From assembly GCF_029227855.1 (NCBI RefSeq), contig NZ_CP074356.1: DNA of 64,000 nucleotides; one strand, written 5' to 3'. Below are positions 4,086-62,472 of the stretch, one piece after another; within the stretch, counting starts at the first letter, position 1; each line of letters opens with the position of its first letter. The notes beneath the pieces were generated by a model. The model worked only from the letters and a program-made list of their open reading frames with translations, did not search any database and was not told where the DNA came from. The position numbers and the translations under genes were made by a program. This DNA comes from Escherichia coli (GTDB lineage: Bacteria > Pseudomonadota > Gammaproteobacteria > Enterobacterales > Enterobacteriaceae).

Positions 4086-5497
4086 TGCGCGCTCCTTTTT
4101 CGCCGCGAAATAGCTACATTTTGATGCGTATCGTTCGGCACTCTGGCAAAGATGAACGCCGGAAGGGCGATGATAAACGCCATGCTAAACCAGGTGTACA
4201 TAAAGACGGTTTGTGTGGTGCCGCTGTCGACGCTGACATGCTGCGAACCAAAAAGCCCCAGCAACAGCCCGGCGATGGTGACGCCGATACTCATCGACAA
4301 TTGCATAATCATCGACAGCAGGCTGTTTCCGCTGCTCGCCAGATTGTCCGGGAGATCTTTCAGCGTCAGGGTGTTCATGGAGGAGAAACGGGTCGAGTTG
4401 ACCATCCCTTGTAAAAACAGGACGAACGGCAAAACGTAGTACCAGCCCAGCAGAGCAGTGGTCATAAACAACAGGGTGACCAGCGACAGACCCAGCGTGG
4501 TCGCCACCAGTACCCGACGGTAGCCAAAGCGATTCACCACCTGTACCATAATTCGCTTCATTCCCATGCTGCCAAGCACCATCGGGATCATCATCAGTCC
4601 GGCATGAAACGGTGAGAAGCCAAGGCCAATTTGCAGGAAAACCGGTGTCATAAAGGGCAACATGCCACTGCCAATACGTCCGGCAAAGCTCCCCGCCAGG
4701 CCCAGCGAAAAGGTACGAGTGCGGAACAGTTTCAGACTGAACAGGGCGCGGTTGTTATTTCTGGCGTGCAGCAGATAAAGCACCAGTGCCACCACGCCAA
4801 CTGCGACCAGGCCAGCAATCGCCAGCGGCGATAAACCTGTACCTTTACTGCCGTCCAGTGCCAGGGTTAATACCGCCATGCCAACCGCCAGCAATAAAAA
4901 GCCGGAAAGATCAAAGCGCCGCGTCTGCATGGTGTAGTTCGGCATTAACATCAGTGTGGCGATCGCGCCAATAATCCCCACCGGAATGTTGATCAAAAAG
5001 ATCCAGTGCCACGACGCGTATTCCACCAGCAGACCGCCGAGCGCCGGACCGAGCAGCGGACCGACCTGACCGGGTAACGTGACAAAGGTCATCGCCGCCA
5101 TATATTGCTCGCGCGGTACGATTTTCATCACCGTCAACCTGCCGACCGGCACCATCATCGCGCCGCCAACGCCCTGTAACGCGCGTGCCAGCAACAGTTC
5201 GTTCAGCGTGCCGGAAAGCGCGCAAAACAGTGAACCGAGAGTAAACAGCACGATGGCGGTAAAGAAAATATTGCGCACGCCGACTTTGTCCGCCAGCCAG
5301 CCGCTGGCGGGCAGCATCACCGCCACGGTCAGTACATAAGAGACAATGACCATGTGCATATGCAACGGACTTTCCCCGAGGCTTTGCGCCATTGAGGGAA
5401 GCGCGGTGTTAACGATGGTGGTGTCCAGCGACTGCATAAAGAAGCCGAAAGCCACAATCCACAATTGCCAGCGGGTGCTGTCGGGAAGATCTGTCAT
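4082..5497 (-). CDS. mdtD: MFS transporter MdtD
   Basis: 471 aa polytopic membrane protein with MFS-type repeats; sits in the mdtABCD-baeSR operon with a 4-nt overlap with baeS. Confidence 0.95.
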
Positions 5498-8400: not shown

Positions 8401-8575
8401 TTGTTTCTGGTGACGCACCGGGCAGCGAGGCGCTGACCATAATCACCGGAAAATCGACCTGCGGCAGTGGGGCGACCGGCAGCATACGGAAGCCCAGTAT
8501 GCCGCACAGGGTAATGGCGACCGACAGTAAAATCGTCGCCACCGGGCGGTAAATGAAGAGGGCAAAAAACTTCAC
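5498..8575 (-). CDS. mdtC: RND multidrug efflux pump subunit MdtC
   Basis: 1025 aa; AcrB/RND-family sequence ([29 protein letters not shown]...). Confidence 0.95.
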
Positions 8576-11500
8576 TTACGCCTCCTCTTCATGGCGAGCA
8601 AAGCGACTTTTGGTCCACAATGCCAGGCGGTCGAACAGCAGATAAATCACCGGCGTGGTGAACAGCGTCAGCACCTGGCTGACAATCAGACCGCCGACCA
8701 TGCCGATACCTAACGGACGACGCAGTTCCGCGCCGACCCCGGTACTCAACATCAGCGGCAGCGCGCCAAGCAGAGCCGCCAGAGTGGTCATCAGGATCGG
8801 ACGAAAACGTAACAGACAAGCCTGGTAGATTGCCTCGCGCGGCGACATGCCTTGCTCGCGCTCAGCAGCCAGCGCGAAGTCGATCATCATGATGGCGTTC
8901 TTCTTCACGATACCGATCAGCAAAATAATGCCGATAATCGCAATCACATCCAGCTCGCTACCGGCAATCAGTAACGCCAGCAGTGCGCCGACCCCTGCGG
9001 TGGGTAGCGTCGAGAGAATGGTGATCGGGTGAATAAAGCTCTCGTACAGAATGCCGAGCACGATATACATCGCCACCACCGCCGCGACAATCAGCCAGAC
9101 AGTGCTGCCCAACGCCGACTGGAAGGCGAGGGTGCTGCCCTGGAACTGCGTGGTGATATCCACCGGCAGATTCAGCGTCTTTTCGGTGTCCATAATCGCC
9201 TGCACCGCATCGCCCAGCGAATAGTTATCCGGCACGTTAAAGGAGATGGTCGTTACCGGGAACTGATCCAGATGGTTGATGGAAAGCGGCGCAAAACGCT
9301 GCTCAATTTTGGCAATTGAGCTTAACGGCACCACTCCACCGTCGCTGCTGGTCAGGCGAATGGTATCCAGCGCCGCGAGGCCTGGGGTATTTTCGGTGTT
9401 GTGTTCCAGCACCACGCGATACTGGTTAGCCTGAGTATAAATAGTGGAAATCAGCCGCTGACCAAACGCGTTGTACAGGGCGTTATCGACATCCGCCATG
9501 CTGATCCCCAGACGGCTGGCGCTGTCGCGATCAACATTGACATACGCCACCAGCCCTTTGTCCTGCCAGTCGCTGGAGACATCAGATAGCTGTGGCAGCT
9601 GCTGGAGTTTTTCCATCAACTGTGGCACCCAGGTACTGAGCGCATCCAGTGACGTGGCCTGCAAGGTAAACTGGTACTGGGTGCGGCTGACCTGAGTATC
9701 GATGGTCAGGTCCTGCGTTGGTTGCAGGAAGAGATCGACGCCCGGCACTTTATCCACCGCCGTTTGCAGACGGGCGATGACTTTTTGCACCCGATCATCA
9801 CGTTCATCCAGCGGTTTGAGGTTGATCTGCAAACGCGCACTGTTCAGCGACGGGTTAGTGCCATCAACGCCAACAAATGAGGTCAGACTTTGCACTGCCG
9901 GATCCTGCAAAATCACGTCCGCGACCTGGCGTTGCCGCTGGGCCATATTGGCAAAGGAGCTGGATTGCGGTGCCTGCAAAGTGCCCTGAATAATGCCGTT
10001 ATCCTGTACCGGGAAGAAACCTTTCGGAATGAACACCCACAACAGCACGCTAAGCAGCAGCGTGCTGAGTGCCACGCTTAAGGTCAGCCACGGATGATTC
10101 AGCACTTTCGCCAGTCCACGACCATAGGCGGCGATTATCCTGTCGAACATTTTCTCCGAGGCTCGGGAGAAGCGATTCTGTTTACGCAGCGACTCCTGGC
10201 TGAGCATCCGCGCGCACATCATCGGCGTCAGAGTCAGCGACACCACGGCTGAGATCAAAATTGCTACCGCCAGGGTAATGGCAAACTCGCGGAACAGTCG
10301 CCCGACGATATCGCCCATAAACAGTAGCGGGATCAGCACTGCAATCAGCGAGAAGGTCAGCGAGATAATGGTAAAACCGATTTCACCTGCGCCTTTGAGC
10401 GCCGCCGCCAGCGGTTTTTCGCCTTTTTCGATATAGCGCGAAATGTTCTCGATCACCACGATGGCGTCATCGACCACGAATCCGGTGGCGATAGTTAACG
10501 CCATCAGCGTCAGGTTATTGATCGAAAAATCGAGAAACACCATGACTGCGAAGGTGCCGATTAACGACAGCGGCACTGCGACGCCAGGAATAATGGTCGC
10601 CGGAATATTGCGCAAAAACAGGTAGATAATCATGACTACCAGCGCGATAGCCATCATCAGTTCAAACTGGGTATCGTCGACCGATGCGCGGATGTTGGTG
10701 GTGCGGTCAGAAAGCACCGTCACTTTTACCGATTTCGGCAAACTCTCGGTGAGTTGTGGCAGCATCTGCCGGATGCTGTCGGCGGTGGAGATAATGTTAG
10801 CACCGGGCTGGCGCTGAACATTCATCACAATGGCCTGTTCTTTGTTCGCCCACGCGCCGAGCCAGCTGTTTTCTGCTCCTTGCTCTACGGTTGCGACATC
10901 GCCCAGACGAATCGGCGCGCCGTTCTGGTAGGCGATGATCAGCTGGCGATACTCTTCGGCGGATTGCATCTGGTCGTTCGCGGAAAGTGTGACCGCACGG
11001 GAAGGGCCGTCGAGGCTACCTTTTGCCGAGTTAACGTTAGCGCCGGTAATAGCGGTGCGCACGGTTTCGCTGGTCAGGCCGAGGGCGGCAATCGCCTGGG
11101 CGTTAAGTTTGACGCGAACAGCCGGACGCTGGCCGCCGGAAAGCGTCACCAGGCCGACGCCGGAAATCTGCGAGATTTTTTGCGCGACGCGGGTTTCCAC
11201 CATATCTTCCACTTGCGTCATCGGCATGGCGGTTGAGGTGACAGCGAGCGTCATGATTGGCGGATCTGCCGGGTTCACTTTGCTGTAAACCGGCGGGTTA
11301 GGCAGATCGCTCGGTAGCAGGTTGGTCGCAGCGTTAATCGCGGCCTGCACTTCCTGCTCGGCGACATCCAGCGGTAATGTTAGCTGGAACTGCAAAGTGA
11401 TAACTGACGCACCGCCGGAACTTTGCGACGACATCTGTTTCAGGCCGGACATCTGCCCGAACTGGCGTTCGAGCGGCGCGGTAACGGCAGAGGTCATGAC

Positions 11501-11698
11501 ATCCGGGCTGGCACCTGGGTAGAGGGTGACCACCTGAATGGTTGGATAGTCCACTTCCGGCAGCGCCGAAACGGGCAGGGCACGATAACCGATAATCCCG
11601 GCGAGTAAGATCGCCACCATCAGCAGCGTGGTGGCGACAGGACGCATAATAAACAGGCGCGATGGGCCGCCTGTGCTGCTCGGGGGTAACACCTGCAT
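8576..11698 (-). CDS. mdtB: RND multidrug efflux pump subunit MdtB
   Basis: 1040 aa; RND family, paralogous to mdtC; start overlaps the mdtA stop. Confidence 0.95.
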
Positions 11699-12945
11699 CA
11701 GGAGCGTGCTCCTTTTTTCGCGTATTCGCGGCTGGTGGCTTTCTCTTCCGGAGTGGTGGCGCTCTGGGCTTCCACTACTTCCACTTTCGCCCCTTCGGTC
11801 AGGCGATCAATGCCGTCTGTCACTACGCGGTCGCCCGCAGAAATACCTGCGCGGATCACCACTTTCTGACTGTCCTGAATGCCCGGCGTCACCAGATGTT
11901 TGCTGACCTTGTTTTCGCTATTCAGCACCCAGACAAAATGGCCTTCATTGCCCATTTGCAGGGCGGCGGTGGGGATCACCACGGCGTTTTGTTCGGTGTC
12001 GACTAACATACGCGCGTTAACAAACTGATTGGGAAACAGTGCATCATCCTGATTATTAAAGCGTGCTTTCACTTTAATCGTACCGGTAGTGGCATCGATT
12101 TGGTTATCGAGGCTTAACAGCGTGCCTTCACTTAATTTCTTCGAGTTGGTGCGATCCCAGGCTTCAACAACCAGCGGTTTTCCGGCTTTTTGCGCCTGTA
12201 CTACGGTAGCGATATCGCTTTCCGGCAGGGTAAAGACTAAATCGATAGGGTGCGTCTGGGTGATCACCACAATCCCGGTGGTATCACCACTGGAGATTTG
12301 GTTACCAACATCAACCTGCTTGAGACCAACGCGACCATCGACTGGTGCGGTGATGCGGCTCCAGTCGAGTTGCAGCTGCGCGCTGGCGACGCTTGCTTCA
12401 TCAGCCTTAATGGTGCCTTCGGTTTCACTGACCAGCGCCTGTTGGGCATCCAGCTCCTGACGAGATACGAGATTGGTTTTTACCAGTTGTTGATAACGCG
12501 CCAGGTCACGGCGGGCGTTGGCAAGCGTGGCTTTATCTTTTGCCAGTTGGCCCTGGGCTTGTGCTAATGCAACTTTGAACTGGCTTGGGTCAATTTCTGC
12601 CAGTAAATCGCCTGCTTTGACCTGCTGGCCTTCCTGGAAATGTAACGCTATCAGTTGGCCGTCCACGCGGCTGCGCACCGTAACGGTATTAGCGGCGGTA
12701 ATGGTGCCAAGCCCGGTGAGGTAACGCGGAACTGCCTGTTCTACGGCGGTCGCCGCCTGAACCGGGGCTAATGGGCCGGAACGCATACCACGGCGACCAC
12801 CCGCTGGCGATTGCTGCGCTTGTTTCGTCGCCCCTGGGGCTGCACTCCGGGAGTCATTGCGGCCTTGCCAGAACCAGAATGCGGCGATGGCGGCGATAAC
12901 CACCACGATTACGATTACCCAACGGGATTTATAACTGCCTTTCAT
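11698..12945 (-). CDS. mdtA: RND efflux membrane fusion (periplasmic adaptor) protein MdtA
   Basis: 415 aa from ATG at 12945 ([27 protein letters not shown]...), matching remembered MdtA; the ORF-track 5' extension to 13092 is rejected. Confidence 0.9.
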
Positions 12946-12998
12946 CGTTAAGAGTTTCTCTTCCTGAAACGTTTCGCGGAATGATACTAGTGTAGCCA

Positions 12999-13016
12999 GC
13001 CAATAAGGGAGAAAAA
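12999..13016 (-). promoter_or_regulatory. Candidate BaeR-binding box in the mdtA promoter
   Basis: Minus strand reads TTTTTCTCCCTTATTGGC, close to the reported BaeR consensus TTTTTCTCCATDATTGGC, about 55 bp upstream of the mdtA start. Confidence 0.5.
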
Positions 13017-13175
13017 TGGAGGAATTATGAAACACTATCGGGAATCGTCTGAATGGCGGGCACATTTGCGAGCACGCATCCAGTAATAACACATGAAACT
13101 ATTTTATCTACGCGTTAGCGATAGACTACGTGCATGGCGAAAGGAGGTAAGCCGATGATTTCAGCGGGACGCTGA

Positions 13176-13320
13176 AACGGGAAAGCCCCTCCCGAGGAAG
13201 GGGCCATAAATAAATAAGGAAAGGGTCATGATGAAGCTACTCATCATCGTGGTGCTCTTAGTCATTAGCTGGCCAGCTTACTAAGACTACCAGGGCGGGG
13301 GAAACCCCGCTCTACCCTCA
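13176..13320 (-). ncRNA. Sib-type antisense sRNA, copy 1 (antitoxin of ibs)
   Basis: Minus-strand promoter TTGACA (13355..13350), 17-bp spacer, TACTTT (13332..13327); transcript fully overlaps ibs copy 1; GC-rich hairpin (13186..13205) followed by a U-rich stretch on the minus strand. Ends are approximate. Confidence 0.5.
13228..13284 (+). CDS. Type I toxin Ibs, 18 aa hydrophobic peptide (MMKLLIIVVLLVISWPAY)
   Basis: ATGATG start followed by a hydrophobic 18-codon ORF, typical of Ibs toxins, preceded by AAGGAAAGGG. Confidence 0.75.
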   Translation: MMKLLIIVVLLVISWPAY

Positions 13321-13506
13321 CTCCTGAAAGTATGCCTTCACGATAAGATTGTCAATCTGCAGGCTTTGCAGTCTGCGATCCTGCCAGCAAATATTCTTTG
13401 CGAGACGTTACGCAATAATCACACTGGAAACTATTTTATCCGCAAGTCAGCGATAGACTGCATACAGGGCGAAAGGAGGTAAGCCGACGATTTCAGCGGG
13501 ACGCTG

Positions 13507-13648
13507 AAACGGGAAAGCCCCTCCCGAGGAAGGGGCCTTAAATAAGGAAAGGGTCATGATGAAGATACTCATCATCGTGGTGCTCTTAGTGATTAGCTAC
13601 CCAGCATACTAAGACTACCAGGGCGGGGGAAACCCCGCTCTACCCTCA
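13507..13648 (-). ncRNA. Sib-type antisense sRNA, copy 2
   Basis: Same architecture as copy 1: minus-strand TTGACA (13683..13678), 17-bp spacer, TAATTT (13660..13655); hairpin plus U-rich 3' end near 13507. Ends are approximate. Confidence 0.5.
13556..13612 (+). CDS. Type I toxin Ibs, 18 aa (MMKILIIVVLLVISYPAY)
   Basis: Paralogue of copy 1 at the same position in repeat unit 2. Confidence 0.75.
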   Translation: MMKILIIVVLLVISYPAY

Positions 13649-13835
13649 CTCCTGAAATTATGCCTTCACGATAAGATTGTCAATCTGCAGGCTTTGCAGT
13701 CTGCGATCCTGCCAGCAAATATTCTTTGCGAGTCGTTACGCAATAATCACAGAGGAAACTATTTTGTTCACGCGTTAGCGATAGACTGCATTCAGGGCGA
13801 AAGGAGGTAAGCCGACGATTTCAGCGGGACGCTGA

Positions 13836-13983
13836 AACGGGAAACCCTCTCCCGGAGAAGAGGGCTTTTAATAAGGAAAGGGTTATGATGAAGCACGTCA
13901 TCATACTGGTGATACTCTTAGTGATTAGCTTCCAGGCTTACTAAGAACACCAGGGGGAGGTGGAAACCTCTCCCTAACCCTCA
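13836..13983 (-). ncRNA. Sib-type antisense sRNA, copy 3
   Basis: Minus-strand TTGACA (14018..14013), 17-bp spacer, TAATTT (13995..13990); diverged hairpin CCCTCTCCCGGAGAAGAGGG. Ends are approximate. Confidence 0.45.
13885..13944 (+). CDS. ibsA: Type I toxin Ibs, 19 aa (MMKHVIILVILLVISFQAY), IbsA-like
   Basis: The 19-aa peptide matches the remembered IbsA sequence; it is the most diverged of the three copies. Confidence 0.7.
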   Translation: MMKHVIILVILLVISFQAY

Positions 13984-14164
13984 CTCCTGAAATTATGTCA
14001 CTCCGCCCTTAGTGTCAATCGACGGCTCTCCGTTCTTGCGAGGCGAATAGCAAAATTTTCTGCGCCGCCGGGCCTAATTCTGAAAGTTTCTTCGTTTGCT
14101 CTTATTTCATTATTGCAGTCGGTATGATACCGGACCTCAATAATTCTCTAAGAAAGGATTTCTT

Positions 14165-14824
14165 ATGAGCGAACAAATCACGTTTGCCACCAGCGATTTT
14201 GCCAGTAACCCGGAACCACGTTGCCCCTGCATTTTGCTGTTGGATGTTTCTGGTTCGATGAGTGGTAGACCTATTAATGAACTTAACGCCGGATTGGTTA
14301 CCTTTCGCGATGAGCTGCTTGCCGATTCGCTGGCCTTAAAAAGAGTGGAACTCGGTATTGTGACGTTCGGCCCGGTGCATGTGGAACAACCCTTTACCAG
14401 CGCCGCTAATTTTTTCCCGCCCATCCTGTTTGCCCAAGGCGATACACCAATGGGGGCCGCCATTACCAAAGCCCTGGATATGGTTGAGGAGCGCAAACGT
14501 GAGTATCGCGCCAATGGTATTTCCTATTATCGTCCGTGGATTTTCCTGATCACTGATGGCGCACCAACCGATGAGTGGCAGGCTGCCGCCAACAAAGTGT
14601 TTCAGGGGGAAGAAGATAAGAAGTTTGCCTTCTTTTCCATCGGTGTTCAGGGGGCGGATATGAAGACTTTGGCACAAATCAGCGTTCGTCAGCCTTTGCC
14701 ACTGCAGGGATTACAATTCCGTGAACTGTTTAGCTGGTTATCCAGTTCGCTGCGTTCGGTTTCCCGCTCCACGCCGGGAACGGAAGTTGTGCTGGAAGCG
14801 CCAAAAGGCTGGACGTCAGTGTGA
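14165..14824 (+). CDS. yegL: von Willebrand factor A (vWA, TerY-like) domain protein YegL
   Basis: 219 aa; MIDAS motif DVSGSMSG in [15 protein letters not shown]; first gene of the yegL-yegK-yegI operon. Confidence 0.9.
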
Positions 14825-15582
14825 GCTGGCGTCTGGTCTATGCATCAACCGTTGGAACGTCGCACATCAGCGCGGACTTGCCTTGCCAGGATGCCTGCCA
14901 GATGCAGGTTGCCTGGTTAAATGACCAGCAGCCATTATTGTCGGTATTTGTCGCTGATGGCGCAGGCAGTGTCTCGCAGGGTGGCGAAGGCGCGATGCTC
15001 GCCGTCAATGAAGCGATGGCTTATATGTCGCAAAAAGTGCAGGGCGGGGAATTGGGGCTTAATGATGTCCTCGCCACGGATATTGTGCTGACCATTCGTC
15101 AACGACTTTTTGCCGAGGCGGAAGCCAAAGAATTAGCGGTTCGCGATTTTGCCTGCACATTTCTGGGACTGATTTCATCGCCTGACGGCACCTTGATTAT
15201 GCAGATTGGCGATGGCGGCGTGGTGGTAGATTTGGGTCACGGTCTGCAATTGCCTCTCACGCCGATGGTGGGTGAATATGCCAACATGACGCACTTCATT
15301 ACCGACGAAGATGCCGTTTCCAGACTGGAAACTTTCACCAGCACTGGGCGTGCGCATAAAGTTGCAGCATTTACGGATGGTATTCAGCGACTGGCGTTAA
15401 ATATGCTGGATAATTCTCCGCATGTGCCTTTCTTTACCCCGTTTTTCAATGGACTGGCGTCAGCAACGCAGGAACAACTCGATTTATTACCTGAATTGTT
15501 AAAGCAGTTTTTGTCCAGCCCGGCGGTAAACGAGCGTACCGATGATGATAAAACGTTGGCACTGGCGCTGTGGTTACCATGA
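14821..15582 (+). CDS. yegK: PP2C-family Ser/Thr protein phosphatase YegK (PphC)
   Basis: 253 aa; GTG start overlapping the yegL stop (GTGA); PP2C-like metal-binding signature (FVADGAGS...); matches remembered PphC. Confidence 0.9.
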
Positions 15583-52006: not shown

Positions 52007-52900
52007 ATGACGAATTTAAAAGCAGTTATTCCTGTAGCGGGTCTTGGGATGCATATGTTGCCTGCCACTAAGGCGATTCCCAAAGAGATGCTACCCATCG
52101 TCGACAAGCCAATGATTCAGTACATTGTTGACGAGATTGTGGCTGCAGGGATCAAAGAAATCCTCCTGGTAACTCACGCGTCCAAGAACGCGGTCGAAAA
52201 CCACTTCGACACCTCTTATGAATTAGAATCTCTCCTTGAGCAGCGCGTGAAGCGTCAACTGCTTGCGGAAGTGCAGTCCATCTGTCCTCCGGGCGTGACC
52301 ATTATGAACGTGCGTCAGGGCGAACCTTTAGGTTTAGGCCACTCCATTTTATGTGCACGACCTGCTATTGGTGACAACCCATTTGTCGTGGTGCTGCCAG
52401 ACGTTGTGATCGACGACGCGAGTGCCGACCCGCTGCGTTACAACCTTGCTGCCATGATTGCGCGCTTCAACGAAACGGGCCGCAGCCAGGTGCTGGCAAA
52501 ACGTATGCCGGGTGACCTCTCTGAATACTCTGTCATCCAGACCAAAGAGCCGCTGGACCGTGAAGGTAAGGTCAGCCGCATTGTTGAATTTATCGAAAAA
52601 CCAGATCAGCCGCAGACGCTGGACTCAGACATCATGGCCGTTGGCCGCTATGTGCTTTCTGCCGATATTTGGCCGGAGCTAGAACGCACTCAGCCTGGTG
52701 CATGGGGACGTATCCAACTGACAGATGCTATTGCCGAACTGGCGAAAAAACAGTCCGTTGAAGCCATGCTGATGACCGGCGACAGTTACGACTGCGGTAA
52801 AAAAATGGGTTATATGCAAGCGTTCGTGAAGTATGGACTACGCAACCTGAAAGAAGGGGCGAAGTTCCGTAAAGGGATTGAGAAGCTGTTAAGCGAATAA
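52007..52900 (+). CDS. galF: UTP-glucose-1-phosphate uridylyltransferase-like regulatory subunit GalF
   Basis: 297 aa from ATG at 52007 ([30 protein letters not shown]). Confidence 0.95.
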
Positions 52901-53157
52901 TGAAAATCTAACCGAATGTAACGGTTGATAAGAAAATTGTAACGGCAGTGAGGATTCGTGGCGAAAGTAATTGTTGCGAATATTCCTGCCGTTGTTTTAT
53001 ATAAACAATCAGAATAACAACGAGTTAGCAATAGGATTTTAGTCAAAGTTTTCCAGGATTTTCCTTGTTTCCAGAGCGGATTGGTAAGACAATTAGCGTT
53101 TGAATTTTTCGGGTTTAGCGCGAGTGGGTAACGCTCGTCACATCGTAGACATGCATG

Positions 53158-53196
53158 CAGTACTCTGGTAGCTGTAAAGCCAGGGGCGGTAGCGTG
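53158..53196 (+). promoter_or_regulatory. JUMPstart element with ops (GGCGGTAGCGTG) upstream of the O-antigen cluster
   Basis: CAGTACTCTGGTAGCTGTAAAGCCAGGGGCGGTAGCGTG, 39 bp; ops core at 53185..53196, about 100 bp upstream of the first O-antigen gene. Confidence 0.75.
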
Positions 53197-53297
53197 TCTA
53201 GTTCAATCCGAGTAAATTAAAAATAATAGTTTTGGAAAAATTGTCTTTATAATGTTAACAAAGCAAGAGTAGGTAATACATATCGTTTTGACATGTA

Positions 53298-54362
53298 TTG
53301 CACTTAAAGAAAACATATCAATTAAATTATCATACTATGCTTATTTACAATACAATATTTGTCTTTTTATCATTTCTTGCACTTTTAGATTTAAGTCATA
53401 AAAAAAATTTGTTATTTTTTTTATTTCCTTGTTTTATATTACTACTGTTAACTGCTATTCGTGGTAATGGAGGAGATGATTTTTATGTGTATGAAAAATA
53501 TTTTAACGCTCTTCCTAATGAAATTTTTAACTATGGATATGGTTATTATAGTTTAAATATGTTTGTTAAAAATTTTGGAGAGTATCCTTTTTTTATTATC
53601 ATTTCATCAATAATATGCATAACTCTTCAGGCAATTTTTATTTATCGTGAGACTGAAAAACCAACTCTGGTTTTGTTTTTATTTTATTCAACTAGCTTTT
53701 TATGGTTGGATTTTATTTTAATTAGGCAGTCAATTTCCGTTGGTTTTTTTATTTTGGCAATATCATTTTTCAAAAATAATAAAAAAATTTTTGCCTGTCT
53801 GTTTTTGATTCTATCTTCATTATTTCATGAGACCGCTATTTTTGCTGGAGTAGTTTTTTATATTTTATACAGAGCCGAGAAGGCAGGTTTTCTTTTTACA
53901 ATTGGCTCGGTATTAATTATTGCACCATTTTTATCTGATATAATCACTATCATAAATGATATGACGATAAAAAATAATAATATAACTCTCTATCTGGAGC
54001 AGCGTACCTTACCAAGCATTGCAAATGTAATTGAGTTAACAATAGCATTTGTTGCATTTTATATAATTAATAAAAATTCCGTGTTTAGAGAGAGTAATGA
54101 GTATAAAATATATAAAAGTATACTATATTCTTCACTATGCATACTATTATTGTCTTATACAATCCCATCATTGGCTAGATTCCTAGAATTTTTTCGTTTT
54201 TTTTACTTCATTTTAGTAGTTAGAATGCTAATGCAATTTAATGTGAGAAGTAGATATCTTTTTTTTGTAATTATACTAGCGTACTGTTTTATGAGACTTA
54301 ATAGCTTCATAAATCAATTTGATTCTGGTTTTGATTATATTTATAATGGAAAAATACTGTGA
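53298..54362 (+). CDS. wzy: Polytopic membrane protein, candidate O-antigen polymerase Wzy (EpsG-like)
   Basis: 354 aa, very hydrophobic with multiple predicted TM segments, AT-rich codon usage; first gene after galF. Assignment as Wzy rather than Wzx is a judgement from size and composition only. Confidence 0.5.
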   Translation: MHLKKTYQLNYHTMLIYNTIFVFLSFLALLDLSHKKNLLFFLFPCFILLLLTAIRGNGGDDFYVYEKYFNALPNEIFNYGYGYYSLNMFVKNFGEYPFFIIISSIICITLQAIFIYRETEKPTLVLFLFYSTSFLWLDFILIRQSISVGFFILAISFFKNNKKIFACLFLILSSLFHETAIFAGVVFYILYRAEKAGFLFTIGSVLIIAPFLSDIITIINDMTIKNNNITLYLEQRTLPSIANVIELTIAFVAFYIINKNSVFRESNEYKIYKSILYSSLCILLLSYTIPSLARFLEFFRFFYFILVVRMLMQFNVRSRYLFFVIILAYCFMRLNSFINQFDSGFDYIYNGKIL

Positions 54363-55228
54363 CTATATTATTTTCTGTTATTACTCCTACCTATAATAGG
54401 GCAGATGAGTTAAGCTCATTGTTCAAAAGTCTTAATAATCAAGAGGGTATCGAATTCGAATGGGTGATAATTGATGATGGTTCTGAAGATCATACACAAC
54501 AACAAGTTAATGACTTCAAAAAACATAATAAAAACATCACAGATATAAAATATTTTTATCAAGAGAATAAAGGTAAAAATTCTGCTGTAATTAGAGGGAT
54601 TCAGAATGCTTCCGGCGATTATATTGTGGTGATTGATAGCGATGATTATTTATTGGATGATGCTTTAATAAGAGTAAAAAATATATTAGATGAAGAGAGT
54701 GTTAATGGCGATGATAAAATAATTGGCATTTCAGGTGTTAAAGTTAAAAGTGATTTCACACCTGTAAGTTATATTAGCAACTCTTCGGCATTGCGAATGA
54801 GTCATTATGAGTGGTTTTATAAGTTTCAGCGGTTAGGTGATCGGATTGACTTTTATAAAGCCCGAGTGCTTAAAGAGAAAATATTTAATGCATTTCCAAA
54901 GGAAAAGTTTATTACAGAAGACGCATATTGGTTGGACCTCGTTGGGGAAAAAATTTTCATAAATGAACCGTTATTAGTAATAAAATATTTAGAGGGAGGG
55001 CTTAGTTCAAGTTACTCATTACTCCTGCGAAACAGTCCTTTTGGAACATCATATTATTATTATATTCTATTAATTAATGCTGATAATTTTAAAACAAAAC
55101 TTAAAGCATCATTATTGATGATGTACTATATATTTGTTACCATATTAAAAAATAGTAATATAGTAATTGGGTTATTGTCACTCATGTTATTTCCAATCTT
55201 ATGTATAATAAAATTCTTTCGAAGCTAA
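54359..55228 (+). CDS. Glycosyltransferase family 2
   Basis: 289 aa; MTILFSVITPTYNRADEL...WVIIDDGSEDHT (GT2 DXD region). Confidence 0.8.
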   Translation: MTILFSVITPTYNRADELSSLFKSLNNQEGIEFEWVIIDDGSEDHTQQQVNDFKKHNKNITDIKYFYQENKGKNSAVIRGIQNASGDYIVVIDSDDYLLDDALIRVKNILDEESVNGDDKIIGISGVKVKSDFTPVSYISNSSALRMSHYEWFYKFQRLGDRIDFYKARVLKEKIFNAFPKEKFITEDAYWLDLVGEKIFINEPLLVIKYLEGGLSSSYSLLLRNSPFGTSYYYYILLINADNFKTKLKASLLMMYYIFVTILKNSNIVIGLLSLMLFPILCIIKFFRS

Positions 55229-56406
55229 GAAACACTATTCTTCCTTGTTTCACTCTAGGAACGTCGACGATTTTTTTCTTTGCGATAGGTTTCTTCTTTG
55301 GTATAAATGAAAAATCTGATTTTATATTATTTACGATTACTTTACTTTCAACCATTGGAACTATTCTTCAAATTTCTTGGTATGGATTGTTACCTCGTTT
55401 GAGTTCGAGTTCAAGCTTAAAATTTTTAGGTTATATTATTTCTAATGGTTTTATCTACTGTTTGATCATAAATACCCTACCATTTGTGATTTTAACTCTG
55501 AACTTTACAAACTTTTTTTTTGCAGGGTGTCTCTACTCTTTATTTTTCCAACTGCATCAGTATCTTAAGAATGTTTTTGTTTATCTTGGGCGGCTTAAAG
55601 CATTTTATATTTTTGATGCCATCGGCTATGCCATATGTGTTATAAGTATTACTGTGTTCCAAAAATATCTATTACATTCAAACCCTCAGGATTTATTTGT
55701 TCTGCTTTCGTTATGTTGGCTTTTAATAGTAATTGGTGAGGTCGTACATCTTAAACTATATATTAATTATGACATATCTGTAAAGCCTGTTTATGTATGT
55801 ATTATTCCAACATGGAAAACAAGGATTGCAAACAGTGGTTTTATTGTGAAAGATCTTTTAACTGCGTATGCGCTTAATATACTTGCGCCGGTAGGCGGTT
55901 TAACTATATATTCATACGCAAGTAAGATTTCAACAGCTGTTTTTCAATTATTCTCTCAATATAAAGTAAATGCTTGGGTGGGCAGCATAAGAAAAAAAAG
56001 GTTAAGTGAAGTAGAATACGGTGATATAAAAAAAGTGTCATTATCTTCTTCAATTGATTTTTGTATTTTTCAGATCGTTGCATGGCTTTGTATCTTACCT
56101 ATTATATTATATAATGGCACAAATATAAATATTGAATGGTATGTATTAAGTATTATTACTGGTGGATTACTATACTTGATACAATCAATGGAACAGCCTT
56201 ATGCTAGATTTATTTATATGTCACGACATTTTACCGATATTGCCATCGCAGATGGAATAAATTTTATTATTTATATGGTTTTCTTTTCATATGGATTGTT
56301 AATGTTAAATGTATATTATCTATTTTTAGGTATTATATTAGCTCAATTATGTTCACTAGTTACTTATTCTTTATTTTGCAAGAGGTTGTTTAGGAATGAT
56401 ACCTAA
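55201..56406 (+). CDS. wzx: Polytopic membrane protein, candidate O-antigen flippase Wzx
   Basis: 401 aa with about 10-12 hydrophobic segments; the ORF overlaps the upstream GT2 gene by 28 nt, so the true start is uncertain. Confidence 0.5.
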   Translation: MYNKILSKLRNTILPCFTLGTSTIFFFAIGFFFGINEKSDFILFTITLLSTIGTILQISWYGLLPRLSSSSSLKFLGYIISNGFIYCLIINTLPFVILTLNFTNFFFAGCLYSLFFQLHQYLKNVFVYLGRLKAFYIFDAIGYAICVISITVFQKYLLHSNPQDLFVLLSLCWLLIVIGEVVHLKLYINYDISVKPVYVCIIPTWKTRIANSGFIVKDLLTAYALNILAPVGGLTIYSYASKISTAVFQLFSQYKVNAWVGSIRKKRLSEVEYGDIKKVSLSSSIDFCIFQIVAWLCILPIILYNGTNINIEWYVLSIITGGLLYLIQSMEQPYARFIYMSRHFTDIAIADGINFIIYMVFFSYGLLMLNVYYLFLGIILAQLCSLVTYSLFCKRLFRNDT

Positions 56407-57052
56407 AATAATACATTACTGTTGGTTCGGGGGCGGGGATAAACCTGCTTTAGTTAAAAAATGTATGGGGACATGGGAAAAAGTCTTGCCTGGTTGGGAT
56501 ATTATTGAATGGAACGAAGATAATTCGCCAGTATCAGTTCCTTATGTAAAAAATGCGTTAGAAGATAAACGATATGCATTTGCTGCTGATTATGTAAGAT
56601 TCTATGCGCTAAAAACCATGGGAGGAGTTTATCTTGATACTGATATGGAATTGATCAAAGATATTTCTCCGCTTTTGAATAATAAATTCTTTACAGCGAA
56701 AGAATCAGAGGAGCTTATTAATGCAGCAATAATGGGGAGTGAAAAAGATGGGAGATTTGTCAATTTAGTAATCCAAGAATTACAATTGCGCACAGGACAT
56801 ACTTACGAATCTATACCAAAAATACTTACTGATATATTTAATACAGGAAATGGATTTAAAGATGAAACAACCATTTATGATAAGGAATATTTTTATCCTT
56901 ATAATCCCTTTGATAATAAACGAAATGAAGTTAAACAACTTTTCTATTGTGATATAACTCCTCATACTTATGCCATTCATCACTGGCAACAAAGTTGGCA
57001 CTATACATTTCTTGAACGGGTTATTAACAGAATAAGGATGCTTATAAAGTGA
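56396..57052 (+). CDS. Glycosyltransferase (sugar-transferase DXD family, GT32-like)
   Basis: 218 aa; MIPKIIHYCWFGGG...YLDTDMELIKD, typical of the Gly_transf_sug family. Confidence 0.7.
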   Translation: MIPKIIHYCWFGGGDKPALVKKCMGTWEKVLPGWDIIEWNEDNSPVSVPYVKNALEDKRYAFAADYVRFYALKTMGGVYLDTDMELIKDISPLLNNKFFTAKESEELINAAIMGSEKDGRFVNLVIQELQLRTGHTYESIPKILTDIFNTGNGFKDETTIYDKEYFYPYNPFDNKRNEVKQLFYCDITPHTYAIHHWQQSWHYTFLERVINRIRMLIK

Positions 57053-57819
57053 GTGGAAATAAATTAATAAGCATAATTATGGCATCAAATAAAATAGATG
57101 AGTTTCTACCTCTGGCAATAAACTCAATTCTTGAACAAACATATCAAAATATCGAAGTGATTTTTGTTGCTAATGGTGATAAAGCTCACTGTATTAGTTT
57201 GTATATAAAAAATTTTTTTAAAGATGAGCGAATCAAAATTTATGAAACACCAATAGGCCAACTATCACATGCGCTTAACCTCGCTATTTCTAACGCATCG
57301 GGTGATTATATTGCCCGCATGGATGCTGATGACATTAGTTTACCTGAGCGATTAACTAAACAGTTGGAATATTTAAGGTCACATAATTTAGATATGGTAG
57401 GTTCGGATATAATTCACATAGATACAAATGGAGAAGTTATTGGGATTAAACATTATCCCAAAGGGTTAAATAAAATTAACAAACAATTGTATTTTAGGAA
57501 TACTTTTTCGCATAGCACTATACTAATCAAAAAAAAAATACTCATTTCAGCGAGAGGCTACAATGCTGGATTTAATTCAGAGGACTATGATCTCTGGTTA
57601 AGATTAAGACGGAAGAATATCAAATGGGATAATATGGAGGAATGCCTCTTAAAATATCGTATACATAGTGCATCTACACAAAGGAAGAGATTGGGTTACG
57701 CCGAAGTCGCGGGTTATTCTCTACGTGAATTTTTATTACGTTTCTCATTTATTGGTATTTTTTCTGTTTTAATTCATATTGTTAAAGTTTATATTAAATC
57801 ATCTTCTCATGAAGAATGA
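57049..57819 (+). CDS. Glycosyltransferase family 2
   Basis: 256 aa; ISIIMASNKIDEFLPLAINSILEQTYQNIEVIFV...DADD. Confidence 0.8.
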   Translation: MSGNKLISIIMASNKIDEFLPLAINSILEQTYQNIEVIFVANGDKAHCISLYIKNFFKDERIKIYETPIGQLSHALNLAISNASGDYIARMDADDISLPERLTKQLEYLRSHNLDMVGSDIIHIDTNGEVIGIKHYPKGLNKINKQLYFRNTFSHSTILIKKKILISARGYNAGFNSEDYDLWLRLRRKNIKWDNMEECLLKYRIHSASTQRKRLGYAEVAGYSLREFLLRFSFIGIFSVLIHIVKVYIKSSSHEE

Positions 57820-58010
57820 TTTATATTTTAGGATAATTAACTATTTAAATTAGAATCATTTGAGCAAACTTAGGTAACTCTATATAATACACAGCATTGC
57901 AAATGAGTAACATATTGGAATAGCCATTCAATGGTAATATTACAAATTGCTTTAATAATAATGGATCATTTAGCTATGGTGCAATATTTTCTTCTTGCGG
58001 AATTTTACCC

Positions 58011-59129
58011 ATGAAAATACTTCTAATAGGAAACCTCTCTGATACTATTGTATTATTCAGAGAGAAGTTAATAAGAGAGTTGATTAAAAAAAATATCACG
58101 GTTTATACATTAACGATGGATTCTAATCAAGAAAACTTCAACATCATTGCCAGCTACGGGGCCAAACCTGATTCATACTCTTTTTCTCGTTCAGGTACAA
58201 ATCCTTTTTCTGATATTTGGGATACATACAAATTAAATAAAAAAATAAAAAAAATAAAACCTGACGTTGTTCTTTCTTTTTTTCCAAAACCTGTTATTTA
58301 TGGTTCTTTAGCTGCTAAAATAGCAGGGGTGAAAAAAATATTTAGTCTCTTGGAAGGACTTGGTTTTTGCTATACGAATAATTCTAGTCCAATTAGTCTC
58401 AAAAGGAAGATATTAAAATGTATACAAACAATGCTATACAGAATTAGCTTGCCATTATGTAATAAAGTTTTTTTCTTAAACAAGGATGATTTTAATGATC
58501 TCATTATTGATAATAAAATAACCATAAAGAATTATGAAATAATTGGTGGAATTGGTGTTAATTTAGAAGAGTACAGTTATAAGCAACCAAAGATTGATAA
58601 AATACATTTTGGGATGGTTTCGCGATTACTAGTCGAGAAAGGTATTCGCGAATTTGTTTTGGCCGCGAGCCAGGTGAAAAAAAAATTTCCTGAGGTCGAA
58701 TTTAGTATTGCTGGCGCAATTGATGATAATCCTGGTGGTATAACCGAAGATGAGATAAAAAAATGGGAATCAGAGGGGGTTGTCAAATTTTTAGGTCAAG
58801 TTTCTAATGTTAAAAGTTATTTATCTAATATCTCTGTTTTCGTTTTGCCATCTTACCGAGAAGGCGTACCAAGAAGTACTCAAGAAGCGATGGCTATTGG
58901 GCTTCCAATAATTACAACTAATGTTCCTGGTTGTCGTGATACAATTATCAATATGGTAAATGGAATCATGATCCCACCATTTGATATTCAGTCTCTAGCG
59001 GACGCAATGGTATTTTTTATACAAAACCCTCAGAGTATAACAATAATGGGTAGAGAAAGTAGAATAATTGCAGAGAAAAAGTTTAATGAAATAGAAGCCG
59101 CGAATAAATTACTTAAATTAATAATCTAA
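58011..59129 (+). CDS. Glycosyltransferase family 4 (GT-B, retaining)
   Basis: 372 aa; C-terminal EX7E-type region PSYREGVPRSTQEAMAIGLPIITTNVPG. Confidence 0.8.
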   Translation: MKILLIGNLSDTIVLFREKLIRELIKKNITVYTLTMDSNQENFNIIASYGAKPDSYSFSRSGTNPFSDIWDTYKLNKKIKKIKPDVVLSFFPKPVIYGSLAAKIAGVKKIFSLLEGLGFCYTNNSSPISLKRKILKCIQTMLYRISLPLCNKVFFLNKDDFNDLIIDNKITIKNYEIIGGIGVNLEEYSYKQPKIDKIHFGMVSRLLVEKGIREFVLAASQVKKKFPEVEFSIAGAIDDNPGGITEDEIKKWESEGVVKFLGQVSNVKSYLSNISVFVLPSYREGVPRSTQEAMAIGLPIITTNVPGCRDTIINMVNGIMIPPFDIQSLADAMVFFIQNPQSITIMGRESRIIAEKKFNEIEAANKLLKLII

Positions 59130-59159
59130 TATATAGATTAACATCTACCGGAGTGTTTT

Positions 59160-60179
59160 ATGGCTATTCTTGTTACTGGCGGAGTTGGTTATATCGCTTC
59201 GCACACTATTATAACTTTACTAGAAAAAGGTGAAGAAGTTATAATACTTGATAATTTATCAAATTCATTCTACGAATCTTTGCATAAAGTTAAAAAAATT
59301 ACCGGGTATGATAGTCGATTTTATAGAGGTGATATACTTGACAAAGAGCTCTTACGCAAAATATTCAAAGAAAACACTATTTCTGACGTAATTCATTTTG
59401 CAGGCTATAAATCTGTAAAAGAATCCATTTCTCACCCATTGAAATACTATCAAAATAACGTTTCTGGTACATTGTCATTAATAGATGCGATGGGGGAGGC
59501 TTGTGTAAAAAGTTTGATTTTTAGCTCATCAGCTACAGTATATGGTGAACCAGAAAGAATACCTTTAGATGAAAATTGCAGAATTGGAGGTACAACGAAT
59601 CCATACGGCACGTCCAAGTTATTCGTAGAAAAATTCCTTATTGATTATTCACATGCATTCCCTGATTTTAGAACTACCATCTTAAGATATTTCAACCCTG
59701 TCGGTGCTCATCCATCTGGTGAAATAGGGGAAGATCCCAATGGTATACCTAACAACTTAATGCCATATATATGTCAAGTTGCTATAGGGAAGCAACAACA
59801 CCTCACTATCTTTGGTAGCGATTATCCAACAAAAGATGGTACAGGTGTTCGTGATTATATCCATGTCATGGATCTTGCTGAAGGGCATGTTGCAGCGTTA
59901 GAACATCGAAATGAAGGAGCAAATTGCAAGATCTATAATCTCGGGACGGGCACAGGATACTCAGTACTGGAACTTGTTGATGCATTTCAAAGAGTTACTG
60001 CACGTAAAGTTCCATATGTATTCAGTAAACGACGACCTGGTGATATTGCTGAGTGTTGGTCTGATCCTTCTAAGGCTTATAGGGAACTTGGATGGAAAGC
60101 GAAGCGTGGGTTGGAAGAAATGGTTCGAGATGCCTGGAATTGGCAACAAAAGAATCCGAACGGTTATATAAAAGCATGA
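59160..60179 (+). CDS. gne: NAD-dependent UDP-hexose 4-epimerase (GalE/Gne family)
   Basis: 339 aa; Rossmann motif VTGGVGYIASH and catalytic YGTSK; UDP-GlcNAc versus UDP-Glc specificity cannot be told from sequence alone. Confidence 0.8.
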   Translation: MAILVTGGVGYIASHTIITLLEKGEEVIILDNLSNSFYESLHKVKKITGYDSRFYRGDILDKELLRKIFKENTISDVIHFAGYKSVKESISHPLKYYQNNVSGTLSLIDAMGEACVKSLIFSSSATVYGEPERIPLDENCRIGGTTNPYGTSKLFVEKFLIDYSHAFPDFRTTILRYFNPVGAHPSGEIGEDPNGIPNNLMPYICQVAIGKQQHLTIFGSDYPTKDGTGVRDYIHVMDLAEGHVAALEHRNEGANCKIYNLGTGTGYSVLELVDAFQRVTARKVPYVFSKRRPGDIAECWSDPSKAYRELGWKAKRGLEEMVRDAWNWQQKNPNGYIKA

Positions 60180-60297
60180 ATGCTCAATGGTATTTTTGTC
60201 AATCTTAAAAATTATCGATTTTATGTATCCTGAGTTAACATAGCATCTACATTGACCTGAGTTATGTTTCGCAGTATCACCCTGACAGGAGTAAACA

Positions 60298-61704
60298 ATG
60301 TCAAAGCAACAGATCGGCGTAGTCGGTATGGCAGTGATGGGGCGCAACCTTGCGCTCAACATCGAAAGCCGTGGTTATACCGTCTCTATTTTCAACCGTT
60401 CCCGTGAGAAGACGGAAGAAGTGATTGCCGAAAATCCAGGCAAGAAACTGGTTCCTTACTATACGGTGAAAGAGTTTGTTGAATCTCTGGAAACGCCTCG
60501 TCGCATCCTGTTAATGGTGAAAGCAGGTGCAGGCACGGATGCTGCTATTGATTCCCTCAAGCCGTACCTCGATAAAGGTGACATCATCATTGATGGTGGT
60601 AACACCTTCTTCCAGGACACCATTCGTCGTAACCGTGAGCTTTCTTCAGAAGGCTTTAACTTCATCGGTACCGGTGTCTCCGGTGGTGAAGAAGGTGCGC
60701 TGAAAGGTCCTTCCATTATGCCTGGTGGGCAGAAAGAAGCCTATGAACTGGTAGCGCCGATCCTGACCAAAATCGCCGCAGTAGCTGAAGACGGAGAGCC
60801 ATGCGTTACCTATATTGGTGCCGATGGTGCAGGTCACTATGTGAAGATGGTTCACAACGGTATTGAATACGGTGATATGCAACTGATTGCTGAAGCCTAT
60901 TCTCTCCTGAAAGGCGGCCTGAATCTCTCTAACGAAGAACTGGCACAGACCTTTACCGAGTGGAATAACGGTGAACTGAGTAGCTATCTGATCGACATCA
61001 CCAAAGATATCTTCACCAAAAAAGATGAAGACGGTAACTACCTGGTTGATGTGATCCTGGATGAAGCAGCAAACAAAGGTACGGGCAAATGGACCAGCCA
61101 GAGCGCGCTGGATCTCGGCGAACCACTGTCTCTGATTACCGAGTCTGTGTTTGCACGTTATATCTCTTCTCTGAAAGATCAGCGCGTTGCCGCATCTAAA
61201 GTTCTTTCTGGTCCGCAAGCGCAGCCGGCAGGCGACAAAGCTGAGTTCATTGAAAAAGTTCGCCGTGCGCTGTATCTGGGCAAAATCGTTTCTTACGCTC
61301 AGGGCTTTTCTCAGCTACGCGCCGCGTCTGAAGAGTACAATTGGGATCTGAACTACGGCGAAATCGCGAAGATTTTCCGTGCTGGTTGCATCATCCGTGC
61401 GCAGTTCCTGCAGAAAATCACCGATGCATATTCCGAAAACCCGCAGATCGCTAACCTGCTGCTGGCTCCGTACTTCAAGCAAATTGCCGATGACTACCAG
61501 CAGGCGCTGCGTGATGTCGTTGCTTATGCGGTACAGAACGGTATCCCGGTTCCGACCTTCGCCGCTGCGGTTGCCTATTATGACAGCTACCGTGCTGCTG
61601 TTCTGCCTGCGAATCTGATCCAGGCTCAGCGTGACTATTTTGGTGCGCATACTTATAAGCGCATTGATAAAGAAGGTGTGTTCCATACTGAATGGCTGGA
61701 TTAA
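60298..61704 (+). CDS. gnd: 6-phosphogluconate dehydrogenase, decarboxylating
   Basis: 468 aa; [27 protein letters not shown]; GC content abruptly higher than the upstream O-antigen genes. Confidence 0.95.
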
Positions 61705-61764: not shown

Positions 61765-62472
61765 CAGAAAACCCCCAGCTAGGCTGGGGGTTCCGGAAAG
61801 CTTTCAGCTTTGAGCCAGTTATTAAAACCCCTTTTGATTTGTTAAAACACTTTGCGGTCTGGCAACTGCAAGTGTCAAACAAGAAATCAAAAGGGGGTCC
61901 CAATGGGGAACGAAAAGAGCTTAGCGCACACCCGATGGAACTGTAAATATCACATAGTTTTTGCGCCAAAATACCGAAGACAGGTGTTCTACAGAGAGAA
62001 GCGTAGAGCAATAGGCAGTATTTTGAGAAAGCTGTGTGAGTGGAAAAGCGTACGGATTCTGGAAGCTGAATGCTGTGCAGATCATATCCATATGCTTGTG
62101 GAGATCCCGCCCAAAATGAGCGTATCCGGCTTTATGGGATATCTGAAAGGGAAAAGCAGTCTGATGCTTTACGAGCAGTTTGGTGATTTGAAATTCAAAT
62201 ACAGGAACAGGGAGTTCTGGTGCAGAGGGTACTACGTCGATACGGTGGGTAAGAACACGGCGAAGATACAGGATTACATAAAGCACCAGCTTGAAGAGGA
62301 TAAAATGGGAGAGCAGTTATCGATTCCCTATCCGGGCAGCCCGTTTACGGGCCGTAAGTAACGAAGTTGGATGCAAATGTCAGATCGTGTGCGCCTGTTA
62401 GGGCGCGGCTGGTAAGAGAGCCTTATAGGCGCATTTGAAAAACCTCCGGCTATGCCGGAGGATATTTATTTT
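61765..62472 (+). mobile_element. IS200-family insertion sequence (IS200/IS605 family); boundaries approximate
   Basis: About 0.7 kb element between gnd and ugd carrying a tnpA ORF; left-end hairpin CCCCCAGCTAGGCTGGGGG and right-end hairpin CCTCCGGCTATGCCGGAGG. gnd and ugd are directly adjacent in K-12. Confidence 0.7.
61903..62361 (+). CDS. tnpA: IS200 transposase TnpA (HUH Y1 transposase)
   Basis: 152 aa from ATG at 61903; MGNEKSLAHTRWNCKYHIVFAPKYRRQVFY...HIHMLVEIPPK (HuH motif) is characteristic of IS200 TnpA. Confidence 0.85.
   Translation: MGNEKSLAHTRWNCKYHIVFAPKYRRQVFYREKRRAIGSILRKLCEWKSVRILEAECCADHIHMLVEIPPKMSVSGFMGYLKGKSSLMLYEQFGDLKFKYRNREFWCRGYYVDTVGKNTAKIQDYIKHQLEEDKMGEQLSIPYPGSPFTGRK

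Follow-up and report, generated by a model that had tools for sequence, protein, structure and literature searches.

The 64,000-nucleotide stretch of E. coli DNA analysed here (the window) carries a group of genes between galF and gnd that the original prediction, made from the letters alone, read as an AT-rich O-antigen cluster of a serogroup it could not name. Which O antigen does this locus specify, and can its genes account for the sugars and the assembly route of that antigen? We conclude, with a probability of about 95%, that 53298-60179 is the intact and ordinary O-antigen gene cluster of E. coli serogroup O23, which would operate by the Wzx/Wzy-dependent pathway and draw on housekeeping UDP-sugars only.

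Gene content between galF and gnd

Seven ORFs on the same strand fill the interval in the order wzy, GT2, wzx, GT32, GT2, GT4, gne, and these are the only genes between galF and gnd (Table 1). The G+C content of the cluster genes is 25.4-37.5% and their GC3 19-26%, compared with 51% and 56% for galF, 50% and 52% for gnd, and a G+C content of 49.8% for the whole window, as anticipated by the original prediction. E. coli O-antigen clusters typically combine low G+C with a position between galF and gnd (Liu et al. 2020, PMC7685785). Neither the ORF list nor the RefSeq annotation has rml, GDP-sugar, wzm or wzt genes between galF and gnd, which bears out the predicted lack of dTDP-rhamnose and GDP-sugar pathway genes. 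No IS element or frameshift was found inside the cluster; all seven ORFs are full length and identical in many independent isolates. A copy of IS200C lies outside the cluster, between gnd and ugd, and is absent from at least one other O23-derived genome.

Table 1. Features of the O-antigen locus and its flanks (positions in the window)
Feature	Position	Strand	Basis
Seven cluster ORFs	53298-54362, 54359-55228, 55201-56406, 56396-57052, 57049-57819, 58011-59129, 59160-60179	+	
galF, conserved upstream flank	52007..52900 (alternative start 51995)	+	RefSeq annotation of identical genome; G+C 51%
ops element GGCGGTAG in JUMPStart, galF-wzy intergenic	53185..53192	+	exact match in context CAGGGGCGGTAGCGTG
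wzy, predicted O23 O-antigen polymerase, 341 aa from ATG	53337..54362	+	Pfam EpsG; RefSeq name at 100% identity
GT2 glycosyltransferase, 289 aa, C-terminal hydrophobic helix	54359..55228	+	Pfam Glycos_transf_2 E = 2.4e-27; NCBIfam GT2 matches
wzx, predicted O23 O-unit flippase, 401 aa	55201..56406	+	predicted MOP-superfamily fold; RefSeq 'O23 family O-antigen flippase'
GT32-type glycosyltransferase, 218 aa	56396..57052	+	Pfam Gly_transf_sug PF04488 E = 4e-12; Caps_synth E = 3e-10
second GT2 glycosyltransferase, 256 aa	57049..57819	+	NCBIfam EpsE E = 2.9e-32, TuaG E = 2.8e-22
GT4 glycosyltransferase, 372 aa	58011..59129	+	Pfam Glycos_transf_1 E = 1.3e-30; Glyco_trans_4_2 E = 6.8e-10
gne, GalE-family UDP-hexose / UDP-N-acetylhexosamine 4-epimerase, 339 aa	59160..60179	+	TIGR01179 461.5 bits (cut-off 262.3)
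gnd, conserved downstream flank	60298..61704	+	RefSeq annotation; G+C 50%

Pfam and NCBIfam matches agree with the four glycosyltransferases proposed earlier, two of GT2, one GT32-like and one of GT4. The first GT2 enzyme carries a TM-like segment at residues 268-286, and the GT32-type enzyme has a Gly_transf_sug/DXD domain and is named 'glycosyltransferase family 32 protein' in RefSeq. The EpsE and TuaG matches of the second GT2 enzyme both fall below the equivalog cut-offs; its homologues carry Glycos_transf_2.

The ops element precedes the ATG of wzy by about 150 bp. In 64 kb about two copies of such an 8-mer would arise by chance, and the assignment is credible because of its position and flanking sequence rather than the 8-mer alone. 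ops is the loading site for the antiterminator RfaH. On the far side of the locus, wzzB, encoding the chain-length regulator, starts 146 bp past ugd in a 99.99% identical genome; this start corresponds to position 63976 of the window, whose end cuts the gene. Exploring the ORF list and the RefSeq annotation between wcaM and galF, we found no gnu gene, as would fit a unit that begins with GlcNAc.

Assignment to serogroup O23

Of 5,426 complete E. coli genomes, 18 contain the 7,301 bp that surround the cluster over their full length (100% coverage) at 99.9-100% identity, and over its entire 64 kb the window matches strain JNEC-KY178 at 99.99% identity. In the matching genomes wzy bears the RefSeq name "O23 family O-antigen polymerase" and wzx the name "O23 family O-antigen flippase", and both genes are 100% identical to those of the window. 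The published forward primer of an O23-specific wzx PCR matches exactly at 55580-55599, inside wzx, while the site of the reverse primer (55964-55983) has one extra base in an A run compared with the primer as printed, giving a predicted product of 404 bp against the 403 bp reported. Given the complete identity to clusters with 'O23 family' wzx and wzy and the exact match of the forward primer, we assign the locus to O23 on this indirect evidence, the label being drawn from RefSeq naming and from one primer pair whose printed reverse member departs from the sequence by a 1-nt indel. The unaided reading of the cluster was accurate in every element, and the serogroup that it could not name is O23.

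The cluster is already catalogued; the result assigns the strain to genotype O23, and its value is mainly bookkeeping. At the frequency seen among the complete genomes O23 is a rare serogroup; occasional reports place it in STEC/EAEC hybrids or in isolates from pigs and poultry.

Partial matches of 97.9% in pig ETEC genomes were considered as a distinct hybrid serogroup and rejected, since their annotation revealed IS1 truncation and pseudogenes; they are degraded O23 clusters and not a new type. Such IS1-truncated clusters in several pig ETEC genomes, together with a reported O23-genotype 'Orough' strain, 12-05829 (PMC6279748), lend some weight to the idea that the strain studied here is O23 by sequence but rough or non-typeable, owing to a defect elsewhere (waaL, wecA, wzzB or rfaH) or to a subtle one in the cluster. 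We consider this improbable, given that the seven uninterrupted ORFs are the same as those of many independent isolates.

Polymerase, flippase and epimerase

The two polytopic membrane proteins, both put forward earlier as candidates for Wzy and Wzx, can be told apart. The product of the first gene matches Pfam EpsG (PF14897) over residues 39-335 with E = 1.1e-35 and has about 10 hydrophobic segments in a hydropathy scan. RefSeq starts this gene at the ATG at 53337, and the TTG at 53298 only opens the longest ORF. By its sequence it is a genuine Wzy-type polymerase of the EpsG family, as a Wzx/Wzy-dependent pathway requires.

The product of the third gene is an orphan in sequence. Searched as a single sequence, it gave no Pfam match even at E <= 10, nor did any of the 11 family members; it had no match in NCBIfam and no sequence match in the PDB, and when tested against the Pfam Polysacc_synt profile it failed. 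A profile search of 1.84 billion cluster representatives recovered 17 proteins, with no protein bridging to a named family. The AlphaFold2 model (pLDDT 80.7, pTM 0.76), by contrast with the seven segments of a strict-threshold hydropathy scan that we set aside as an under-count, has 12 long helices. Its best Foldseek matches were WzxE (9g9n; E = 5.5e-6, TM 0.65) and MurJ (5t77/6nc6; TM 0.70), followed by MATE transporters. The WzxE and MurJ matches reached a Foldseek probability of 1.00, with modest TM scores (0.65-0.70) and about 13-16% sequence identity. We therefore take the third gene to encode the Wzx flippase, its membership of the PST family (MOP superfamily, 12-14 TMS) being indicated by predicted fold and genomic context. 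As the family escapes both Pfam and NCBIfam, automated pipelines that use HMMs only would miss the O23 flippase.

Could this 401-aa protein instead be some other MOP/MATE transporter or an accessory protein, with WzxE or WzxC flipping the O unit? The failure of all sequence searches and the presence of MATE exporters among the fold matches would be compatible with that. However, the top fold matches are flippases of lipid-linked sugars, the protein is the sole MOP-fold product of a cluster that has a Wzy and no wzm/wzt, and its position and its overlap with the upstream GT2 gene are kept in the modules of Citrobacter, Salmonella and Morganella, which together make a protein other than a flippase highly unlikely. 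The substrate of the terminal epimerase, predicted to be of GalE/Gne type, raises a similar question. Its RefSeq name, 'UDP-glucose 4-epimerase GalE', and its score above the cut-off of the GalE equivalog model are what one would expect of an ordinary second GalE that converts only UDP-Glc and UDP-Gal, with UDP-GalNAc coming from another enzyme. GalE entries of the PDB match it at E values of about 1e-122, the best being 1LRK (E = 3.7e-123), which places it in the GalE fold and family. Where E. coli GalE has Tyr299, however, this epimerase has Cys299, in line with Cys299 in 1LRK and with Cys307 in human GALE (1EK5). The gatekeeper residue at this position restricts E. coli GalE to non-acetylated substrates, and 1LRK is the Y299C mutant, which reportedly acquired activity on acetylated ones. 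Because of the small residue at the gatekeeper position, Gne would be expected to act on acetylated sugars. The 2020 review of E. coli O antigens places a gne in the O23 cluster and treats it as the supplier of UDP-GalNAc (PMC7685785). An enzyme confined to UDP-Glc and UDP-Gal is accordingly improbable, and Gne fits a UDP-GlcNAc/UDP-GalNAc (and UDP-Glc/UDP-Gal) epimerase of group 2 of the GalE family.

Proposed pathway and comparison with known clusters

The locus has a Wzy, a Wzx by predicted fold, neither wzm nor wzt, and a wzz nearby, a combination that points to the Wzx/Wzy pathway. Transcription would start upstream of wzy and be carried through the operon by RfaH recruited at the observed ops/JUMPStart element. 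WecA, encoded elsewhere, would form Und-PP-GlcNAc, and Gne would convert UDP-GlcNAc to UDP-GalNAc and, judging from the gatekeeper Cys, probably also interconvert UDP-Glc and UDP-Gal. The four glycosyltransferases would add four further sugars, so that a repeat unit of five residues, with Glc, Gal, GlcNAc and GalNAc as the candidate sugars, is expected from these enzymes and WecA, in agreement with the earlier estimate of four or five. By CAZy family rules, applied to the set as a whole and not enzyme by enzyme, the two inverting GT2 enzymes should account for two beta linkages and GT32 and GT4, both retaining, for two alpha linkages, the polymerisation linkage not counted. Wzx would then carry the unit, linked to Und-PP, across to the periplasmic side, Wzy, of EpsG type, would polymerise the units, and WzzB would set the chain length.

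An O23 repeat unit was reportedly published by Bartelt et al. in 1993. As listed in Liu et al. 2020 (PMC7685785), O23 contains one GlcNAc, deduced to be the initial sugar, and one GalNAc; for these two residues the listing is compatible with the gene content of the cluster including gne.

The RefSeq O23 clusters (Og23; e.g. NZ_AP045174.1 and NZ_CP019256.1) share with the present one an identical gene order, the same location between galF and gnd and the presence of gne, which Liu et al. 2020 (PMC7685785) also give for O23, and we detected no difference within the cluster. The O16 cluster of K-12 occupies the same locus, uses the same Wzx/Wzy pathway and has a similarly low G+C content. It differs in having rmlBDAC, glf and a gene for an O-acetyltransferase, whereas gne is the sole sugar-pathway gene of the O23 cluster. 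The predicted 12-helix fold of O23 Wzx is likewise that of WzxE, the lipid III flippase (9g9n), and of MurJ (5t77, 6nc6); unlike these, the O23 protein has no match to Pfam Polysacc_synt or MurJ, and its 401 aa put it among the shorter Wzx proteins.

Outside E. coli, Citrobacter freundii and Salmonella enterica subsp. houtenae carry wzy-GT2-wzx-GT32-GT2-GT4 in the same order between galF and gnd. Identity of the module proteins to those of O23 is 64-78% in Citrobacter and 58-72% in Salmonella; for galF and gnd it is 92-96%. The Citrobacter module retains only a 73-aa remnant of gne, and in that of Salmonella gnd is preceded by an additional Acyl_transf_3 gene. In Morganella morganii the module adjoins cpxRA, the order of the glycosyltransferases is rearranged, the GT4 enzyme is only 26% identical and gne is absent. 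Tentatively, O23 Wzx may represent a very small lineage of MOP flippases that current profile libraries miss and that travels with the six-gene module in Escherichia, Citrobacter, Salmonella and Morganella. If so, there would be a gap in the coverage of Wzx by profiles, and, provided that the O antigens of those hosts have not yet been linked to O23, the module would predict a shared or related O-unit backbone across the four genera.

Identity of the AT-rich cluster between galF and gnd

Exploring the region between galF (ending at 52900) and gnd (60298-61704), we found seven ORFs at 53298-60179, all on the plus strand and tightly packed, with several stop/start overlaps (see table). The G+C content in 500-base windows changes from 48-52% in galF to 26-35% in the cluster and to ~50% in gnd; taken singly, the cluster genes have a G+C content of 25.4-37.5% and a GC3 of 19-26%, as against 50-51% and 52-56%, respectively, in galF and gnd. 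The ORFs, the G+C content and the GC3 thus bear out the original prediction of seven AT-biased genes at this position, and the feature is real and far from chance. The spacer between galF and wzy carries GGCGGTAG at 53185 (context CAGGGGCGGTAGCGTG), which is the JUMPStart ops element; ops is used by RfaH in O-antigen operons. Additional exact GGCGGTAG octamers are present in the window at 28495, 29072 and 41782, the chance expectation being ~2 matches per 64 kb on both strands. The octamer at 29072, ~190 bp ahead of wza where the colanic acid operon begins, is probably functional, and those at 28495 and 41782, within yegH and wcaI, are probably chance matches.

Megablast of window 53000-60300 against 5,426 complete E. 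coli genomes revealed 18 genomes, from human, pig, chicken and wastewater, that match at 100% coverage and 99.9-100% identity. The RefSeq annotation of these matches gives "O23 family O-antigen polymerase" for the first gene (wzy, starting from the ATG at 53337), "O23 family O-antigen flippase" for the third (wzx), and GT2, GT32, glycosyltransferase, GT4 and galE for the rest. The full 64 kb window is colinear with E. coli JNEC-KY178 (NZ_AP045174.1 1851714-1915713; 99.99% identity), and the gene order around the cluster is standard, i.e. mdtABCD-baeSR, colanic acid cluster, galF, O-antigen cluster, gnd, ugd and wzzB.

As an independent check of O23 identity, we used the O23-specific wzx PCR primers listed in the supplement of PMC7403468 (403 bp product). 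The forward primer matched exactly at 55580-55599 (0 of 100 shuffles matched). The reverse primer as printed had no match in the window within two mismatches; its site is plainly at 55964-55983, where the window reads AAAGTAAATGC vs. AAAGTAATGC in the printed primer, which has one A fewer, and the predicted amplicon is 404 bp vs. the 403 bp stated. The mismatch reflects either a misprint or a reference that differs in the A run. These genes make up the O-antigen gene cluster already known for E. coli O23, which is intact here and has nothing unusual in its organization; the identical O23-named clusters, the wzx primer match and the family assignments confirm what had been observed from sequence and support its interpretation.

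Genes of the O23 cluster (window coordinates) and syntenic clusters in other genera (locus coordinates; identities are of proteins, relative to the window)
Feature	Coordinates	Strand	Length	Remarks
Wzy	53298-54362	+	354 aa (longest ORF)	
GT2	54359-55228	+	289 aa	Pfam Glycos_transf_2, E = 2.4e-27
Wzx	55201-56406	+	401 aa	predicted MOP flippase fold
GT32-type	56396-57052	+	218 aa	Gly_transf_sug, E = 4e-12
Second GT2	57049-57819	+	256 aa	NCBIfam EpsE/TuaG models
GT4	58011-59129	+	372 aa	Glycos_transf_1, E = 1.3e-30; Glyco_trans_4_2
Gne	59160-60179	+	339 aa	GalE equivalog model
Citrobacter freundii (L004)	6137-12312			64-78% identity; between galF and gnd; gne a 73-aa remnant
Salmonella enterica subsp. 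houtenae (L006)	6137-14973			58-72% identity; between galF and gnd; gne present; extra Acyl_transf_3 gene before gnd
Morganella morganii (L008)	6145-11870			44-63% identity; adjoins cpxRA

Assignment of Wzy, Wzx and Gne

Wzy matches Pfam EpsG (PF14897; E = 1.1e-35) across nearly its full length and has ~10 hydrophobic segments, indicating that the cluster does encode a Wzy-type protein. Wzx matched nothing in Pfam, even with the threshold relaxed to E <= 10, nothing in NCBIfam and, by sequence, nothing in the PDB, and none of 10 Wzx homologues carried a relevant Pfam family; when 1.84 billion cluster representatives were searched with a profile, only 17 proteins of this family were found. An AlphaFold2 model of Wzx, built on an 11-sequence alignment, shows twelve long helices (mean pLDDT 80.7, pTM 0.76). 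Its top PDB match by Foldseek was the lipid III flippase WzxE (9g9n; E = 5.5e-6, TM 0.65), followed by the lipid II flippase MurJ (5t77 and 6nc6; TM 0.70) and then by MATE transporters. Given that the matches are members of the MOP superfamily throughout, WzxE and MurJ among them, the model settles the choice that the original prediction had left open, with the first membrane protein as predicted Wzy and the product of the third gene as predicted Wzx. Both polytopic proteins, proposed as Wzy and Wzx candidates, are thereby upheld, and the family matches together with the Wzx fold agree with the expected set of two membrane proteins, four glycosyltransferases (two GT2, one GT32-like and one GT4) and a terminal epimerase. 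The O23 Wzx is invisible to profile HMM libraries, and annotation by HMMs only would miss the flippase.

Gne scored 461.5 bits with the GalE equivalog model, vs. a cut-off of 262.3. Its best PDB match is 1LRK, the Y299C mutant of E. coli GalE, and its Cys299 aligns with Cys299 of the 1LRK chain and with Cys307 of human GALE. Tyr299 of GalE is a bulky residue that shuts out N-acetylated substrates; with a Cys there, which the human enzyme has too, both UDP-Glc/UDP-Gal and UDP-GlcNAc/UDP-GalNAc can be epimerised. The equivalog score and Cys299 corroborate the assignment of the last gene to a GalE/Gne-type epimerase.

Predicted assembly of the O unit

A review of E. coli O antigens (PMC7685785) groups O23 with those that have a single D-GlcNAc and a single D-GalNAc, and deduces from the presence of gne in the cluster that GlcNAc is the initial sugar. 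The two sugars listed, GlcNAc and GalNAc, are compatible with the gene content, which includes gne. The window, in which gne is present and gnu is absent between wcaM and galF, agrees with PMC7685785 on O23. Judging by family membership, WecA likely primes Und-P with GlcNAc-1-P, Gne would supply UDP-GalNAc and probably UDP-Gal too, and the four glycosyltransferases would add four sugars, giving a predicted five-residue unit. CAZy family rules predict beta linkages for the two GT2 enzymes and alpha linkages for GT32 and GT4. Wzx would then flip the O unit, Wzy polymerise it and WzzB set chain length.

Neighbouring loci, degraded clusters and relatives in other genera

An IS200C-family tnpA lies in the gnd-ugd spacer (61903-62361) and is also present in JNEC-KY178. 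Between mdtA and yegL lie three tandem copies of an Ibs-type type I toxin locus (13065-13997), whose repeat units share 83-89% identity and whose annotation is two Ibs-family toxins and ibsA, and the minus strand of 1-1328 carries a HEAT-repeat domain protein gene, cut at the window start and annotated in JNEC-KY178. Several pig ETEC genomes, represented by three further megablast matches and by E. coli ETEC1720 (L002 5288-9725), whose gnd-ugd spacer lacks the tnpA, carry an O23 cluster that is 97.9% identical to the window but degraded: IS1 replaces the wcaM end, galF, wzy, the first GT2 gene and the wzx 5' end, the GT4 gene is broken and IS903B splits wzzB. These strains are presumably O-rough.

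Tracing Wzx homologues revealed syntenic clusters in three other genera (see table). Mild residual interest lies in this distribution of the wzy-GT2-wzx-GT32-GT2-GT4 module across genera and in a Wzx missed by profile HMMs. In Morganella morganii, unlike the window, the glycosyltransferase order is changed, GT4 is only 26% identical and gne is absent. The galF and gnd genes of Citrobacter and Salmonella are 92-96% identical to those of the window while the module is far more diverged, a pattern well known for an old O-antigen form that genera share.
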